IMG/VR virus record: IMGVR_UViG_3300035049_000147
Coordinates: 1 to 28,607 of that record
Length of the DNA stretch: 28,607 nucleotides
Reading direction: 5' to 3' (one strand)
Origin: a virus
Lineage: Duplodnaviria > Caudoviricetes
The position numbers and the translations under genes are program-made. Position 1 is the stretch's first letter; every line of letters begins with the position of its first letter. Below, piece after piece: positions 831 to 21,899 of the stretch. Below the pieces are notes generated by a model. It did not search any database. It was not told the DNA's origin and saw nothing but the letters and a program-made list of their open reading frames with translations.

Positions 831-1241
831 TCATCCTTCCCGCATCATCTTTGCAAGACGATTTGCCCTATCCCCTACCTGTCTTGCCCATTTCGAATCC
901 ATCATCTCGTCTGCTGCTTTTTCATAATCCCCATCTCGAAGCGCCGCGATCATTTTTTTGAACTGCCGGAAACGATTCGGCCCCAGGTTAAACCTCATAT
1001 TAACAAGGACTCGCCATCGATTCGGAGAAAAATTATAGAACTGGAATCCCATTTCAGTGAGATCAGTATTACAATTTTCAATATCATTCCGCAGTAGATA
1101 TAAAGCTTCATCCTCAGAGATACCAACATCTTCAATATTCCGACCGATTCCGATTGTTAACTTGCCGGCCGGACACATGTATGGCTTCAGTTTCAACCCC
1201 TCATCTCTAATCAATTCTTCTTCAATCATTGTATATAGCAC
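831..1241 (-). CDS. Phage lysozyme (T4-lysozyme-like muramidase, GH24 type)
   Basis: DEGLKLKPYMCPAGKLTIGIGRN (catalytic E...T motif), NMRFNLG, SKWARQVGDRANRL, typical of T4L-like phage muramidases. Confidence 0.9.
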   Translation of the reverse strand: MLYTMIEEELIRDEGLKLKPYMCPAGKLTIGIGRNIEDVGISEDEALYLLRNDIENCNTDLTEMGFQFYNFSPNRWRVLVNMRFNLGPNRFRQFKKMIAALRDGDYEKAADEMMDSKWARQVGDRANRLAKMMREG

Positions 1242-1415
1242 TCAATCCATCCTTATTGTTTTTTTAAGTTCAACAACAAAACCCCGTCCTCTCATCTTCT
1301 GTTGATAATCCCGCGCCTGCTGCAGCCCCTCCAACGTCCCTGAAAATATTTCGATCATAATATTAAAAGGATGCTCGGGACTTGGTTTTTCTACCTGGAC
1401 TTCATACCTTGTCAT
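1242..1415 (-). CDS. Small hypothetical protein (57 aa)
   Basis: Hand-translated MTRYEVQVEKP...RGRGFVVELKKTIRMD*. ATGA overlap with the upstream stop and abuts the lysozyme GTG. Confidence 0.7.
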   Translation of the reverse strand: MTRYEVQVEKPSPEHPFNIMIEIFSGTLEGLQQARDYQQKMRGRGFVVELKKTIRMD

Positions 1416-1831
1416 CTAACAACTCCCGTTTTTTTCTGTGTATCTACTTCAAGAGAAACAGTTTCAGTTTCGAAAATTGTTTCTCGGAAAATATCTCCGG
1501 CTAAACCAACATATCCCGCTTGATCATCATAATTATCAACTTTCCCGGCCCCTGTAAGCTGCCGAGAATGTTTGTAGAGAATCATTAATTGTGCAACATT
1601 TAACGGCGTCAACAAATTTGAAAGGACAGAAACAATCTGATGTTGCATATCATCCGGAATCAGCACGGAAGACTCAATCATTCGATTTGTAATGAGTTGT
1701 TTCAAAGTTGCATTCCAATGATCAGCAATTGTTTCGAAACTATTTTCAGGGGTCCCGTATTGATCTAACCGATTTCCGTTGATAATTTCGAGGGCACACT
1801 TCAAACTTTTACCTCGTTCTGTATTTTTCAT
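1412..1831 (-). CDS. DUF6378-like phage protein
   Basis: IINGNRLDQYGTPENSFETIADHW...VAQLMILYKHSR...DNYDDQAGY matches the family pattern as I recall it. Confidence 0.75.
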   Translation of the reverse strand: MKNTERGKSLKCALEIINGNRLDQYGTPENSFETIADHWNATLKQLITNRMIESSVLIPDDMQHQIVSVLSNLLTPLNVAQLMILYKHSRQLTGAGKVDNYDDQAGYVGLAGDIFRETIFETETVSLEVDTQKKTGVVR

Positions 1832-2352
1832 TTATTCACCTCAATATCTTGATGAATCTTGCTTTCCGTTACCGTCGTCTATCCTTTATATTTCCCGCTG
1901 TAACCCGTATCGCAGCCGTCAACCTTTTTAAACCTGATCTGTGCAATCCGTCGCCCTGGCGTCAATACGATCACACAATTTTTCGATTCGTTCTTTATCT
2001 CGAGCGTTACACGGCCCTCGAATCCAGGATCACAAAATCCAGCCGTGCAATGCACACTGAGAAAACACCGGCCCCAGCTCGACCGGCCATCTACAATCCC
2101 CGCTAAAAACAGCGGAATATTAACCGTCTCCTGTGTCATCCCGAGAATAGTGTCGCCGGGATTCAGACTGATTTCACCGGATACTGGATAATAAGCAACG
2201 CCGCTCACGCCATCGATTATTTGTGCATCTAACGTTTTGAATTCGTTTCCAAGACGCAAATCATAACTCGCTGGCTGCTGCTGTTCAGCACGATACGGTT
2301 CAATCAAATGCATTGACCGGCATAATTTTTCAATTTCCACATTTCCGAGCAT
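1828..2352 (-). CDS. dcd: dCTP deaminase, with an in-frame TAG at 1879-1881 before the last 16 codons
   Basis: QPASYDLRLG, DGRSSWGR, TAGFCDPGFEGRVTLEI, RIAQI, YSGKYKG*TTVTESKIHQD. The frame continues to TGA 1828-1830, which overlaps the next ATG. Confidence 0.9.
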
Positions 2353-2509
2353 TAAGGCCCTCCAACATTAATTTTGATCTTTCTTCATCGATTTCGTTTT
2401 GTACATAATCCCAAATATCGATTACAATCTCTCGCATTTCCCGACCGGAGTAATCGTTAATGATGTGTGCCATAACCTCCAACTGCTGTTCAGTCGGTGT
2501 AATTTTCAC
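2330..2509 (-). CDS. Small hypothetical protein (59 aa)
   Basis: Hand-translated MKITPTEQQLEVMAHIIND...; GTGA overlap with the upstream stop; fills the operon gap. Confidence 0.6.
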   Translation of the reverse strand: MKITPTEQQLEVMAHIINDYSGREMREIVIDIWDYVQNEIDEERSKLMLEGLNARKCGN

Positions 2510-2976
2510 TGTATCCTCACAATTTTATTCTCATATTTACCAAGTGATACATTCCATTTAACTGTTGACAGCGACAGATGTTTTGCTTTTTTCGCAATCT
2601 GAATTTTGTTTCGATTGTGCTGTGACAACAGGATATAATCACAAGTTTCAGCTATCCATGGCGTTAAATAATCCCCGTTTGTATGCAACCCGATACTGAT
2701 ATTTTTATACGACGCGAGAATCCACATCATTTTAGCGTATAAATCAGGCTGTAGTGTTGGCTCCCCGCCGGTAAAAACAATGGCATCCAGCCAGCTTTTT
2801 CGCTCATCCAGTAAATCCAGGATTCCTGACCATTCAATTTTCCCACGTTTTTTTGGGATCAAATCTTTATTGTGACAGTGTGGACAATGGCGGTTGCAGC
2901 CTTGTGTGTAAACAACAAGGGACATCTTGCCGGGGTAATCAATTATGCTGTTTTTATAATATGCTGCTATTTCCAC
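2506..2976 (-). CDS. nrdG: Anaerobic ribonucleotide reductase activating radical SAM protein (NrdG-like)
   Basis: SIIDYPGKMSLVVYTQGCNRHCPHCHN (CxxxCxxC), FTGGEPTLQ, LHTNG. No nrdD in the window. Confidence 0.8.
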   Translation of the reverse strand: MEIAAYYKNSIIDYPGKMSLVVYTQGCNRHCPHCHNKDLIPKKRGKIEWSGILDLLDERKSWLDAIVFTGGEPTLQPDLYAKMMWILASYKNISIGLHTNGDYLTPWIAETCDYILLSQHNRNKIQIAKKAKHLSLSTVKWNVSLGKYENKIVRIQ

Positions 2977-3014
2977 ATTTTTTTCCTTTATTGGGTCAAT
3001 AAGTAGATTTTTTT

Positions 3015-3080
3015 ACCTATTGTAAAGTTGAGCGGTGGGGCGGTCCTTTGCCCCATCCGTTCTCTAACTTTTTATTGGCG
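3015..3080 (-). mobile_element. Degenerate attC-like site
   Basis: Minus strand CGCCAAT-AAA-AAGTT(A)GAG-AA-CGG(A)TGGGGC-loop-GCCCCA-CCG-CTC-AACTT-TAC-AATAGGT: attC-type stem with two extrahelical bases, but both cores altered (AAC to AAT, GTT to AAT). Confidence 0.5.
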
Positions 3081-3096
3081 GGCGCGTGACCCGCGC

Positions 3097-3321
3097 TCAG
3101 TTAAAACAGCTTTTTTCTGAGGCTGATACCTCTCGGTATGCTTCCTCAAAAACCGCTTTTGGCGACCAGGACTTGTAACCGTCTGGATATTCAACGAAGT
3201 ACCCTAGCCGTGTATCTCGGTTGGAAACGTCTTCTCCTTTGTAGGTCTTCAAAAAAGAACACTCATCCATGGGAAACGCTCTAATCAATTTTGCTCCAAT
3301 GTACAATTTTTCTTCTGGCAT
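3097..3321 (-). CDS. Conserved small phage protein (YIG.K...GY.V.Y.DGY.SWSPK.VFE.AY family)
   Basis: KLYIGAKLIRAFPM...GYFVEYPDGYKSWSPKAVFEEAYRE; RBS AAGGA. Confidence 0.8.
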   Translation of the reverse strand: MPEEKLYIGAKLIRAFPMDECSFLKTYKGEDVSNRDTRLGYFVEYPDGYKSWSPKAVFEEAYREVSASEKSCFN

Positions 3322-3410
3322 TTAATTATTCCTTTCTTTTGGTTCGCTCTACGGTTTATCCGTAGTAGCGTTTTGATTGGCTCTGCCTATAGGTCAAAGC
3401 CAATATACTG

Positions 3411-3594
3411 TTGAATGAACAGCGAGGTCTGCCAAATATCAGGCCGCACACGCGGGGATCGGGCAACGTCCTTCCCGCCGCGCTATCGGATGCTCTACCG
3501 TTGCCGGTCATATTGCCCACCGAATTAACCTCACTGCTCAAAAGTCATTCAACAATCAGATTCAGCAGACGGAGTACCGCAGCTGATCTGGGCG
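3411..3594 (+). mobile_element. Integron-type cassette (184 bp) without a convincing ORF
   Basis: Starts at G|TTGAAT (3410-3416, perfect GTTRRRY). Its own R'' ATTCAAC (3547-3553) is the exact complement. Ends at G|TTATAT (3594). Confidence 0.7.
3417..3539 (-). ncRNA. Candidate structured RNA inside the cassette
   Basis: 12-bp closing stem GAGCAGUGAGGU/ACCUCGCUGUUC with G-U pairs only on the minus strand, enclosing an ACCG-GCAA-CGGU GNRA hairpin, CGCGG/CCGCG and GCC/GGC stems. Confidence 0.55.
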
Positions 3595-3600
3595 TTATAT
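3547..3600 (+). mobile_element. attC recombination site (54 bp)
   Basis: ATTCAAC-AAT-CAGAT(T)CAGC-AG(A)CGG-AGTA-CCG-CA-GCTG-ATCTG-GGC-GTTATAT: RYYYAAC...GTT cores, unpaired spacer and extrahelical bases on the left arm. Confidence 0.75.
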
Positions 3601-3836
3601 TACTCAAAGTCCTTAATTTGTTTAGCCATGTCAGCTAATTCAGAAAACAATTTCTCAGCACAAAAAGATGGTACAGAAAATCCACTTCTTTTTGTCATTT
3701 TATTATCGTCGCCAACGGGTTCCCAATATTCGACACAAACATTATCCGAATATCCTGTACACCTATATTCCCACCCATCTTCATTTTTTAGAGTCATTTG
3801 AGGTATTTTTGTTAATTCTCTCCATGTATCATTCAT
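3600..3836 (-). CDS. Hypothetical protein (78 aa)
   Basis: ORF track; RBS GAGGTG; the stop abuts the attC site. Confidence 0.7.
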   Translation of the reverse strand: MNDTWRELTKIPQMTLKNEDGWEYRCTGYSDNVCVEYWEPVGDDNKMTKRSGFSVPSFCAEKLFSELADMAKQIKDFE

Positions 3837-3850
3837 ATTTCACCTCAAAA

Positions 3851-5140
3851 TTAAATGTAGTTTATTTCCTTACCTTCTTCTCTGATCGTCTTAAATACTG
3901 GAAATCTCAATGACACTTCATCATTATTTTGATTTTGACTTTCCCCGAAAAAGGTAATCTCTGCTACCCGACCAATGAATTTATCTTTATTATTCCAGAA
4001 TACCTTCCTCTCGTCATCTGAGAAGCCGCTCCCGACGCTCACTTTATTGCCTTTATATGATACTATCAGATTTCCTAATGTCCCGCGTAAACGCCCTTCT
4101 CCTTCTTCTAAGGCAATAATTTTCAGGTCAGCGGATTGCATCTCTTTTACTTTAAGGAGATTCCTTGTGCGCTTACATTCATATGGAGAGGAGGCCACAT
4201 TAACCATGACTCCTTCGTACCCGTTCGAGATCGCCTGTTTTACTAAGTCAGAAACGTAGGATAAATCATCCCCGTGATATAGAATAGGCACACTCTGAAT
4301 AAAATCCTGTGTACAAGATGCCATATACTTAATCAGAGATTGTTTCCGATTTGCACAAGGTGTTGGTGATGAACCTTCTATAAAATCATCAATAAGTAAA
4401 ACATCAAATACATGGAATACAACACCTGTTTTGATACCTTTCTTCCGTACGATTTTAGATGTAGAACGATACCAATCATCTTCTGTATTGTCGATTGCAA
4501 GTAATTCTCCATCATAGACGAAACCTCGTGGTAACTCTATTGCTGCTTCTTCGATTTCCTTAAGTCCTTGATAGAATTGACCCTGCCTTGTTCTGATTTC
4601 AATTAAACCATCATTATGACAGAAAATGAGAGCACGGTGTCCATCCAATTTTGGAGTGACAATGATATCACCTGTAATTCTATGTTGGAAATCTTGATAC
4701 TTATTCGCCAACATCACATTGAATGTAGGAATATGTAATTGAGTCGGAGTTACTTTATTCCATGTACTGGCTGTAATTCCTAATTTAAGTGATTTTGTGA
4801 CCAAAGCCTGGATTAAGGGGGTTGTATTTATATTTGCGTACGTCGATATAAATACCTGTACTGTTGCTATATCAATATCTTTCCCCGTGTTATTCACTTT
4901 GAGATATTGGAGTAAAGAAGGTAGATTTTTAGGTATCCGGATACTCTTATACTGAGAAACATCCGAAAGAACCTTGCGTACCTTTTTAGCACTCAATCCA
5001 GTAACAATGTATGGGTTGAGGAGGAATTGCATAGTTTCCACGAATAACTCATTGTCTTGATTATCTTTGATAAGTTGTTCTTTAGCTTTACGCCCTGTTA
5101 CATCTTGTAACTTGTTTGTAATTTCTAAGAGAGTATACAT
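3851..5140 (-). CDS. lig: ATP-dependent DNA ligase
   Basis: Motif I TPKLDGHRA, YDGEL, FHVFD, EGVMV, LLKVK, OB-fold VGSGFSD...SLRFP. Confidence 0.95.
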   Translation of the reverse strand: MYTLLEITNKLQDVTGRKAKEQLIKDNQDNELFVETMQFLLNPYIVTGLSAKKVRKVLSDVSQYKSIRIPKNLPSLLQYLKVNNTGKDIDIATVQVFISTYANINTTPLIQALVTKSLKLGITASTWNKVTPTQLHIPTFNVMLANKYQDFQHRITGDIIVTPKLDGHRALIFCHNDGLIEIRTRQGQFYQGLKEIEEAAIELPRGFVYDGELLAIDNTEDDWYRSTSKIVRKKGIKTGVVFHVFDVLLIDDFIEGSSPTPCANRKQSLIKYMASCTQDFIQSVPILYHGDDLSYVSDLVKQAISNGYEGVMVNVASSPYECKRTRNLLKVKEMQSADLKIIALEEGEGRLRGTLGNLIVSYKGNKVSVGSGFSDDERKVFWNNKDKFIGRVAEITFFGESQNQNNDEVSLRFPVFKTIREEGKEINYI

Positions 5141-5248: not shown

Positions 5249-5830
5249 CTATGGCAACAATTCAGGGTGTTCAACTTGATTCCGGACTGACTCAATAAAC
5301 AGCCTCCATTCCGGTAACAGGTGTCCTTTTCGCTGCATAATGATATTCTTGAGCCCCATGTAGTTCAGATTCACGATTCTTCTTTGCAAAAAACCTTCCG
5401 GTAAGGCGTTTTTTATTACATCGATAGGCAACCCAGCTTTTATTTTGTTGTTTATTTTTGCAAGATATTCATGATCAATTCCGCGCTCAAAATCAGCAGG
5501 AGTTAATTTTTGCCTTTTTAGCATATGCATCGTGCTCTCTGAACGCTGTGCCTTCCCGACACCATACGTATCCATCTCTACCCACCAGTACCGCGGCGCT
5601 CTGATATCCCACCAAGTCTGAATCATTTTGAGAGCCCCATCATGACCTCGCTCCATCTTGGAAAGTTTTGATGTACGGTTGCCACACGATACAACAAGCT
5701 CTTCAAATTCTCCTTTAAGAAAATCTTCAAATTCAATACTGCTGGTTTTTCCAAATGACAAGCCATCTCCGAATACTGCTTGATCGTACCCTATCTCACC
5801 AATCAATTTTACATACACAAGCACCTCCAT
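5249..5830 (-). CDS. Divergent ThyX/Thy1-like (flavin-dependent thymidylate synthase fold) phage protein
   Basis: WDIRAPRYWWVEMDTY...SESTMH...NALPEGFLQRRIVNLNY..LKNII.QRKGH.LPEW; lacks the canonical RHR motif. Confidence 0.6.
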   Translation of the reverse strand: MEVLVYVKLIGEIGYDQAVFGDGLSFGKTSSIEFEDFLKGEFEELVVSCGNRTSKLSKMERGHDGALKMIQTWWDIRAPRYWWVEMDTYGVGKAQRSESTMHMLKRQKLTPADFERGIDHEYLAKINNKIKAGLPIDVIKNALPEGFLQRRIVNLNYMGLKNIIMQRKGHLLPEWRLFIESVRNQVEHPELLP

Positions 5831-5836
5831 TAGTTT

Positions 5837-6496
5837 TTATTTCAAATCAAAATGTTTATGCAATTGGAAATTAAAAATAATATGAGATATCAACTTTGGC
5901 AGCTTTAATGCAATTTGCTGTGTAATATACTCTACATCTTTACCGGATGATACTGATAATGCTATGTGTAACCCTTTCCAATCAGATCTTATATTTTGGA
6001 ATGCTTTCATAATCTTGATGGAATATTCCAAATCTTCCTGGTTTTTAATCACAAACTTAATCCAAGTTTGTGAAAAAGAAAGACATTTAAGAAAATACGA
6101 ATATTCCATCATCTTATTCTGTTCACCTGAGCTGGGAGTTTTGTAATCAAAAACATGACAAATCGGGAGAAAAGGTTTTCGACTACCATTGGTTTCAACT
6201 TGAATAATACACTCTTTATCACTCAACAACGAAATCAGTTCCCATAATTCTCCTTGATTTTGGAATAAAGGCTCGCCTCCTGTCAAAATTACATTGCTAC
6301 CAAAAGGTATTTTTTCACTAATCCTTTTCGGAGTCATAACGATTGCATCTTCTGATTCTGTAGATTGTGCTCTTCGAGTATCACACCAAGCACAACGTAA
6401 ATTACACCCTTGAAAACGGATAAACCAAGCAATCGCCCCTTGAGGAATAATCCCTACCTCTCCACTAATCGATTGAAAAATTTCATTGATTTCCAT
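5837..6496 (-). CDS. queE: 7-carboxy-7-deazaguanine synthase (radical SAM)
   Basis: INEIFQSISGE, FIRFQGCNLRCAWCDT, LTGGEP, VETNG, DYKTPSSG, QLHK; adjacent to queD. Confidence 0.92.
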   Translation of the reverse strand: MEINEIFQSISGEVGIIPQGAIAWFIRFQGCNLRCAWCDTRRAQSTESEDAIVMTPKRISEKIPFGSNVILTGGEPLFQNQGELWELISLLSDKECIIQVETNGSRKPFLPICHVFDYKTPSSGEQNKMMEYSYFLKCLSFSQTWIKFVIKNQEDLEYSIKIMKAFQNIRSDWKGLHIALSVSSGKDVEYITQQIALKLPKLISHIIFNFQLHKHFDLK

Positions 6497-6510
6497 ATTT
6501 TTTTTCCTTT

Positions 6511-6867
6511 TTAGTACGTTACTTCTGCGTATCCAGTATCAGTTTCCCACAATCGGATTTTAACCAACAGAGGAGACTGCTGTTTAATTACCTGGAAAAT
6601 ATCCATGGCCATATTCTCCGCGGTTGGATTCTTTCCGTAGGATTCAGACGTTAGAAATGAATGATCATACCGATCAATAATCGGTTGAAGAATTTCCTTG
6701 ATCCTTTTGAAATCCATTACCATTCCTGTTTCCGGATGGATTTCGCCTTCAAAGGTACACTCGAGTTTGTAACTATGTCCATGGATTTGTTTGCATTCCT
6801 CGGAATAACACTGTTTCAATTGGTGTGCTGTTTCGAACTTTACAATTTTTGTTACTCTGATTCTCAT
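6511..6867 (-). CDS. queD: 6-carboxy-5,6,7,8-tetrahydropterin synthase
   Basis: FETAH..C..IHGHSY, GMVMDF, YDHSFL, NPTAEN, LWET. Confidence 0.95.
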   Translation of the reverse strand: MRIRVTKIVKFETAHQLKQCYSEECKQIHGHSYKLECTFEGEIHPETGMVMDFKRIKEILQPIIDRYDHSFLTSESYGKNPTAENMAMDIFQVIKQQSPLLVKIRLWETDTGYAEVTY

Positions 6868-21720: not shown

Positions 21721-21757
21721 CTTTTTATATTATATTATATAATATAATATAAAAAGT
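21717..21757 (+). promoter_or_regulatory. Putative promoter overlapped by a perfect 38-bp palindrome
   Basis: TTGACT(21717)-17 bp-TAATAT; palindrome 21720-21757. Confidence 0.6.
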
Positions 21758-21799
21758 ATTTTTTAGGACACCTGAATCCCTGACTTATCAGGATTATTT

Positions 21800-21845
21800 A
21801 AGGCCCGTTTTGACGCAATGCGTTGAGGCGGGCCTTTTTTGTTTT
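21800..21845 (+). terminator. Intrinsic terminator upstream of the scaffold gene
   Basis: AAGGCCCGTTTTGACGC-AAT-GCGTTGAGGCGGGCCTT followed by T-tract. Confidence 0.7.
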
Positions 21846-21899
21846 AACAGATTGAGCAGTAGCTCACAGATACCGCAGTAGCGGAAAGGATAGACGCAG

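Follow-up and report, generated by a model that had tools for sequence, protein, structure and literature searches.

Between two small genes of an uncultured oil-field phage, one coding for a 78-aa and the other for a 74-aa protein, lies a GC-rich element of 146 to 150 nt (3407 to 3556, minus strand), and the question raised by this locus is whether the element is a structured RNA, a concealed protein gene or a feature of the DNA itself. The window, by which we mean the whole stretch of DNA that was analyzed, is a 28,607-base IMG/VR virus record estimated to be 36% complete. In the predicted fold, a long stem encloses three hairpin arms on the minus (gene) strand, and the 278 nt that separate the 78-aa gene from the 74-aa gene are occupied by four successive structures on that strand, namely, a first hairpin (H1), the element itself and two further hairpins (H3 and H4). 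The parts of the element and the structures and genes adjoining it are as follows.

3407 to 3556, minus strand: whole element, long stem plus three arms (48-pair fold, −62.7 kcal/mol, z −3.8/−3.3)
3545 to 3556, minus strand: 5' arm of the outer stem, pairing with 3407 to 3418 (perfect 10-nt inverted repeat; predicted pair probabilities 0.56 to 1.0)
3407 to 3418, minus strand: 3' arm of the outer stem (inverted repeat and fold)
3538 to 3544, minus strand: asymmetric 7-nt bulge between outer and inner stem (fold)
3527 to 3539, minus strand: 5' arm of the inner closing stem, 13 bp with 3 G-U pairs (fold)
3417 to 3429, minus strand: 3' arm of the inner closing stem (fold)
3486 to 3523, minus strand: arm P2, UCGG...CCGA enclosing an internal loop and, at 3497 to 3508, the hairpin ACCG-GCAA-CGGU (fold)
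3446 to 3483, minus strand: arm P3, GC-rich stem of 10 bp (2 G-U) capped by an apical loop (fold)
3431 to 3444, minus strand: arm P4, hairpin GCC-UGAUAUUU-GGC (fold)
3512 to 3519, minus strand: UGGGCAAU, internal loop of P2, candidate pseudoknot partner (8-bp complementarity, 5/300 shuffles)
3460 to 3467, minus strand: GUUGCCCG, apical loop of P3, candidate pseudoknot partner (8-bp complementarity)
3557 to 3592, minus strand: hairpin H1, immediately following the 78-aa stop codon (fold of 3322 to 3602)
3376 to 3404, minus strand: hairpin H3, 5' boundary of the 74-aa gene module (fold; kept in the phage loci L007 and L094 with changed stem letters)
3345 to 3370, minus strand: hairpin H4, in the 5' untranslated region (UTR) of the 74-aa gene (fold; L007 and L094 92% identical over 49 nt)
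3600 to 3836, minus strand: 78-aa ORFan upstream of the element, found in this phage only
3097 to 3321, minus strand: 74-aa gene downstream of the element, widespread in phages (N-terminal half of PHROG 9467, 872 and 32732)
2977 to 3836, minus strand: 860-nt accessory block, which L175, the syntenic relative, lacks

Genome setting and the accessory block

The plus-strand block of the window is a tailed-phage structural module, whose large terminase shares 64 to 65% identity with its counterparts in Pseudomonas, Xanthomonas and Variovorax phages of ~58 kb, and the minus-strand block is a module for phage replication and nucleotide metabolism. The minus strand encodes, in order, a DnaB-like helicase, QueD, QueE, a 193-aa protein, an ATP-dependent ligase and the 78-aa ORFan, followed after the element by the 74-aa protein, a 156-aa radical-SAM protein (NrdG/QueE-like), a dCTP deaminase, a DUF6378 protein and a lysozyme. 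QueD, QueE and the 193-aa protein occupy 5249 to 6867 upstream of the ligase, suggesting from gene content that the phage may make 7-deazaguanine precursors; the small radical-SAM protein at 2506 to 2976 is the second in the window and scores similarly against QueE-like and NrdG PHROGs. Among the 44 open reading frames (ORFs) scanned in this 36%-complete genome, none encoded an integrase, a reverse transcriptase, a transposase-type nuclease or a Ro protein.

The block can be compared with L175, the only close syntenic relative found (ligase 93% identical at the amino acid level), and the sole close relative added by searches with the 78-aa gene, the ligase and the radical-SAM gene. Its gene order is queD-queE-p193-ligase-radical SAM-dcd-DUF6378-p57-lysozyme, and the stop codon of its ligase is separated from the start of the radical-SAM gene by ~20 nt (L175:3173-3194), where the window has 860 nt (2977 to 3836). 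This 860-nt block contains the 78-aa ORF, H1, the element, H3 and H4, the 74-aa gene and 120 nt of GC-rich hairpins. The ribosome-binding region distal to the ligase in L175 is conserved in the window, where it precedes the 78-aa ORFan instead, and the radical-SAM gene starts with GTG in the window versus ATG in L175. As far as the two sequences can tell, the difference could be either an insertion in the lineage of the window or a deletion in that of L175. How the accessory block is built, and that the closest relative lacks it, is the firmer result of this analysis. The 120 nt of hairpins between the 74-aa and radical-SAM genes (2977 to 3096) are GC-rich and without U runs, with z of −4.9 to −5.5.

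The accessory block is itself a mosaic, with a 78-aa gene seen in this phage only and a 74-aa gene that is widespread. Two other phage loci, L007 and L094, share H4 (49 nt, 92%) and an altered H3 with the window but have other DNA upstream, and their 74-aa module begins exactly at H3, just 3' of the position that the element takes in the window. Given that the 74-aa module starts at H3 and that the 78-aa gene is phage specific, the element sits exactly at the joint of two independently traveling modules. The sequence-only reading of this locus had called the element the cargo of a cassette, and the term holds loosely, for a stretch within an 860-nt accessory block that is missing in L175, but not in its sense of an integron cassette, to which we return below. 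The 5' UTR of the 74-aa gene (3333 to 3404; L007:2914-2987; L094:874-922), which comprises H3, H4 and the ribosome-binding site, is 92% identical over 49 nt in these otherwise unrelated phages, in which the 74-aa protein is only 64% identical and the differences in the H3 stem are paired; contigs of the metagenome runs X2 and X9 have a third variant of H3.

The two flanking proteins had no Pfam match at E ≤ 10, no significant Protein Data Bank match and nothing meaningful in PADLOC. The 74-aa protein covers only the N-terminal half of the 155- to 183-aa families PHROG 9467, 872 and 32732. Some of its homologues, such as N4 gp49, carry the RefSeq label 'DUF2829 domain-containing', but none of 22 aligned members matched Pfam DUF2829, and we did not adopt an assignment of the 74-aa protein to DUF2829/Tad2.

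Predicted fold and stability of the transcribed strand

The minus-strand RNA from 3539 to 3417 folded with a minimum free energy (MFE) of −52.5 kcal/mol and a centroid identical to the MFE structure, at z −2.86 and with none of 200 dinucleotide shuffles as stable, whereas the plus strand of the same stretch (3417 to 3539) reached −37.3 kcal/mol at z −0.56, with 56 of 200 shuffles as stable. The sequence-only reading had put forward a comparison with dinucleotide shuffles as a check on its structured RNA, and the minus strand thus passes where the plus strand does not. The parts that it had picked out by eye are largely reproduced: its 12-bp closing stem with G-U pairs is present as 13 bp between 3527 to 3539 and 3417 to 3429 (3 G-U), the arm UCGG...CCGA with its ACCG-GCAA-CGGU hairpin is found in the ViennaRNA fold, as is the GCC...GGC hairpin, and the GC-rich arm is recovered in a slightly different register from the one it had drawn, with GCGCGGCGGG paired to CCCGC.GUGUGC.

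The closing stem continues outward to 3407 and 3556, giving a helix of ~23 bp interrupted by the 7-nt bulge, composed of 12 bp, the bulge and 11 bp with predicted pair probabilities mostly of 0.9 to 1.0. Its outer part is a perfect 10-nt inverted repeat (3409 to 3418 and 3545 to 3554) that extends to 12 bp when G-U pairs are counted. When 154 nt of the minus strand were folded, the structure reached −62.7 kcal/mol (plus strand, −46.7 kcal/mol) with 48 pairs, including 6 G-U, and all 6 non-Watson-Crick pairs of this fold are G-U on the transcribed strand. For 3409 to 3554 on the minus strand, z was −3.81 (0/100 shuffles as stable) or −3.34 (1/300), and across the three shuffle tests the plus strand scored −0.56, −1.60 and −2.11 against −2.86, −3.81 and −3.34 for the minus strand. 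The MFE of the element is the lowest among all 146-nt tiles of the window. Its GC content of 0.57 to 0.58 compares with 0.32 to 0.38 in the flanks and 0.418 in the whole window, in agreement with the enrichment over the flanks that the sequence-only reading had noted.

Several of these values are less striking when set against the rest of the genome. The strand difference of −13.9 kcal/mol amounts to only ~1.9 standard deviations of 195 tiled windows (standard deviation, 7.9), the ensemble diversity of the element is unexceptional (41 of 300 shuffles as low), and since the region was chosen by eye out of 28.6 kb, its z-score needs a multiple-testing discount. Other intergenic regions of the phage have z-scores as strong or stronger, but these are simple hairpins or terminators, which implies that a three-arm junction is not required for a processing or terminator role. 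The most structured intergenic region of the window, 21721 to 21899 (z about −7.5, both strands), combines an AT palindrome with a classic GC hairpin followed by a U run and lies ahead of the genes for scaffold and capsid. Taken together, the four structures from H1 to H4, with the element among them, had z of −6.5 and −6.15.

The arms of the element offer one further level of structure. UGGGCAAU (3519 to 3512) is complementary to GUUGCCCG (3467 to 3460) over 8 bp including a terminal U-G pair, and both 8-nt segments lie in loops, the internal loop of P2 and the apical loop of P3, once 2-bp helices are removed. Loop-loop complementarity of at least 8 bp arose in 5 of 300 shuffles. A 7-nt complementarity between GGGCAAU and GUUGCCC, already pointed out in the sequence-only reading, is therefore real and longer by the terminal U-G pair, and makes the two segments a candidate pseudoknot.

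Copies, coding potential and known classes

The element is known only as identical copies, in three IMG/VR contigs and in 8 of the 8 oil-field runs compared. The stretch is present in 24 oil-field metagenome runs, and the contigs of the eight runs matched the element letter for letter and without indels (at contig level and a depth of 2.5 to 12, at which rare variants escape). Of 80 listed loci with a 74-aa homologue in IMG/VR, three carry the element, all 100% identical, and of 80 such loci listed from metagenomes none does. Scans of IMG/VR with an 18-mer and with an inverted-repeat pattern returned the same three contigs only, among the matches listed, together with one chance match, L085, where the 18-mer fell inside a GC-rich coding region. 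A single loop pattern with free stem positions had no match in 185,579 species genomes, INPHARED phages had no match to the element, and the single match among PLSDB plasmids (39 nt, E 0.4) was rejected as chance. A covariance model, R1, built from the single element sequence and its fold, recovered only the window itself from 98 sources, apart from partial 39-nt matches in L016 and L017 (E 0.33), and found nothing in nine related viral records. There is no second copy in the window. Because all copies are identical, neither covariation nor conservation can be read from them and the element counts as a single sequence; because the searches relied on exact patterns or close relatives, a diverged family could still exist. 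At present, then, we have one invariant sequence with good thermodynamics, a candidate and not a discovery.

No known RNA class accounts for it. Rfam 15 covariance models at gathering threshold had no match in the whole window, and at E ≤ 10 over 3000 to 3900 there were three weak matches, none overlapping 3407 to 3556, which upholds the statement of the sequence-only reading that it recognized no family. ARAGORN predicted no tRNA or tmRNA gene in the window. Between 3322 and 3600 we found no site resembling an intrinsic terminator, a GC-rich hairpin with a U run behind it, on either strand (the stem of the element is followed by GUAUAUUGG), and no match to a sigma-70-like promoter on the minus strand. 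Three other candidates were rejected: an intron splitting one gene, because the 78-aa and 74-aa genes each have their own start, stop and ribosome-binding site (RBS); a hammerhead ribozyme, because the CUGAUGA core is absent; and a replication origin or pac site, because the region lacks iterons and is GC-rich.

Open frames do cross the element on both strands, a 61-aa frame at 3356 to 3541 (minus), a 37-aa frame at 3415 to 3528 (plus) and a 75-aa frame at 3411 to 3638 (plus), and could be read as a small protein gene. None of these frames had a Pfam or PHROG match, a search for near-length matches among 5.8 billion proteins produced no candidate, and Shine-Dalgarno sequences are lacking. The 61-aa ORF moreover has a TTG start without a Shine-Dalgarno sequence, unlike the neighboring genes, and its frame traverses both H3 and H4. 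We consider a protein gene highly improbable on these grounds, and the claim of the sequence-only reading that the locus looks like a structured RNA rather than a protein gene fits both the folding tests on the transcribed strand and the ORFs without homologues.

Its further suggestions of a ribozyme or a riboswitch were guesses and are unsupported. A riboswitch or other ligand-sensing leader for the 74-aa gene and the radical-SAM (NrdG/QueE-like) gene would make sense of an element with a junction and a candidate pseudoknot, placed upstream of those genes in a phage that encodes QueD and QueE. Nevertheless, no Rfam aptamer class overlaps the element even at E ≤ 10, and we found neither a terminator nor a partner that would sequester the RBS. 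H3 and H4, which in other phages are part of the 74-aa module, intervene between the element and the RBS, and L175 has the radical-SAM gene, which we take to be expressed there, without the element. A ligand-gated P1 helix is also far less stable than the ~23-bp closing stem, and a sensing role thus appears very unlikely.

The proposal of an integron origin, with the element as an attC site or as cassette cargo, fares worst. The attC consensus has the R'' box RYYYAAC on the 5' side and the R' box GTTRRRY on the 3' side, with AAC/GTT nearest the loop. The outer stem of the element has GTTGAAT and ATTCAAC, which formally fit these boxes, and like a folded attC site it is an imperfect palindrome of similar size, built from two stems with a bulge between them and a variable top. 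However, the element reads GTTGAAT...ATTCAAC on both strands, that is, with the boxes in reverse order. An integron would also have an IntI tyrosine recombinase and an array of cassettes, each of them ending in an attC site. The host here is a phage, with a replication module of the lytic type; no integrase was seen among the 44 ORFs scanned in the 36%-complete genome, and there is no second site or attC-like array and no further copy. The integron cassette of the sequence-only reading is consequently not sustained, and we regard this origin as scarcely credible.

Processing of the transcript and rival readings

We tentatively favor a model, based on structure prediction and gene order, in which the element is a possible lineage-specific noncoding RNA module that is co-transcribed with its neighbors and acts in cis in the processing, stability or insulation of the message. 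In this model it would act on a polycistronic mRNA, between the 78-aa and 74-aa accessory genes. The element is co-oriented with all flanking genes and no promoter or terminator was found in 3322 to 3600, which favors transcription by read-through, presumably from the 78-aa gene. Judging from its geometry and position, the long stem would be a target for an RNase III-like enzyme, an endoribonuclease specific for double-stranded RNA; such a cut would separate the two cistrons and leave stable hairpin ends, and it might also free a compact RNA of ~110 nt, which the loop-loop pairing could serve to compact.

RNase III processing signals are known from the intercistronic R sites of phage T7 and from the stems that bracket rRNA precursors, and double-stranded RNA of ~20 bp or more, interruptions allowed, is the length class of RNase III substrates. 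The predicted stem, with 12 bp, a 7-nt bulge and 11 bp, falls within that class. The element resembles the T7 R sites in its intercistronic place in a co-oriented phage operon, resembles both R sites and rRNA stalks in having a double-stranded stem of about two turns with an asymmetric internal loop, and resembles the rRNA stalks in that the stem encloses structured RNA. It differs from the T7 R sites, which are single hairpins of ~60 nt, in that its stem is predicted to close a three-arm junction, and no sequence similarity or family model links it to known processing signals.

An RNase III site would need neither the three-arm core nor the GCAA hairpin nor the loop-loop pairing, and a trans-acting RNA therefore stays a rival. 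Such a stand-alone or excised structured RNA, for example, a protein-binding decoy or an anti-defense RNA, would have its function in the three-arm core and pseudoknot rather than in the stem. Consistent with it are the multibranch core with its GCAA tetraloop hairpin and 8-bp loop-loop complementarity (5/300), the GC-rich island without an Rfam family in an AT-richer accessory block, and the placement of the element between, not inside, two gene modules. Against it, the element has no promoter or terminator of its own, no partner gene (reverse transcriptase, Ro/TROVE, TnpB/IscB or Cas) is present among the 44 ORFs scanned, and no homologue turned up in the collections searched; we judge this reading unlikely. 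A bolder form of it, in which the element would found a new class of structured phage RNAs, modeled as ORF-less cargo that is excised through its stem and acts in trans as a decoy or catalyst, is in our view improbable; under that reading, the cargo would be traded in accessory islands of the counter-defense type and would act via the pseudoknotted three-arm core.

Should the fold be functional, it would mean that phage accessory islands trade RNA-only modules beside small ORFan genes, and that a new RNA family exists in an uncultured oil-field phage that may make 7-deazaguanine precursors. The element has the hallmarks outlined for GC-IGR and DIMPL candidates, being a long, GC-rich and well-folding intergenic region in an AT-richer genome (PMC6429828, PMC8632094, PMC8723152), but acceptance there, as outlined in those sources, needs covariation among homologues, and the element has none.

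The main rival outside RNA is a feature of the DNA, either a selfish palindrome resembling a miniature inverted-repeat transposable element (MITE) or a scar or hot spot of recombination where two horizontally acquired gene modules meet, and although we think it rather unlikely, it accounts for several of the observations. Like MITEs, the element is small, has no ORF and has a foreign-looking base composition, and its terminal inverted repeats (10 nt perfect, 10 to 12 bp in all, with a second stem of 11 to 13 bp) are placed exactly at the module boundary. In other phages, the corresponding position ahead of the 74-aa homologue is taken by palindromes of unrelated sequence, for example, a perfect 26-bp inverted repeat with a ~27-nt loop immediately before that gene (L087:1053-1135). 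Unlike MITEs, the element has no visible target-site duplication and no second copy in the collections searched, being single in the window, without a further IMG/VR copy among the matches listed (18-mer and inverted-repeat pattern) and with none in the 185,579 species genomes (one loop pattern). Of the six non-Watson-Crick pairs, all six are G-U on the transcribed strand, which likewise argues against a DNA-level palindrome and for the co-transcribed RNA that we tentatively favor.

One observation on the DNA itself comes from the metagenome assemblies. In contigs of two of the eight runs compared, X19 (639 nt, depth 5.6) and X21 (53 nt), positions 3490 to 3519 are joined to 891 to 920, inside the lysozyme gene. 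The joint lies at a 7-nt microhomology (3513 to 3519 and 884 to 890), so that the crossover falls within the candidate pseudoknot loop segment of the element, and it counts in favor of a DNA-level feature. From the sequence of the contigs, a joint of 3519 to 891 is that expected of a tandem duplication or of a 2.6-kb circle of 891 to 3519.

For stem-loops flanking ORFan cassettes, the nearest described concept, as far as its published outline extends, is the promoter-early stem-loop (PeSL) cassette of T4-type phages, in which GC-rich stem-loops flank ORFan cassettes in variable regions (PMC2839356; such cassettes are also treated in PMC4122927). As outlined there, PeSLs are motifs of ~100 bp, repeated in many copies, with a sigma-70 promoter and a terminator, and recombination between them gives mini-circles (PMC2839356). 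The element resembles PeSLs, so described, in standing beside an ORFan cassette; entire blocks of ORFans likewise set closely related phages apart, as seen here between the window and L175, and the mini-circles reported there have a counterpart in the circle- or duplication-type joint of 3519 to 891. It differs from that description in being single copy and branched and in having no promoter or terminator match. A different arrangement again is seen at L006:2609-3000 (the same in L086 and L089), where a stretch of ~320 nt that is apparently noncoding, and that had no Rfam match, stands together with a tRNA gene ahead of the 74-aa homologue.
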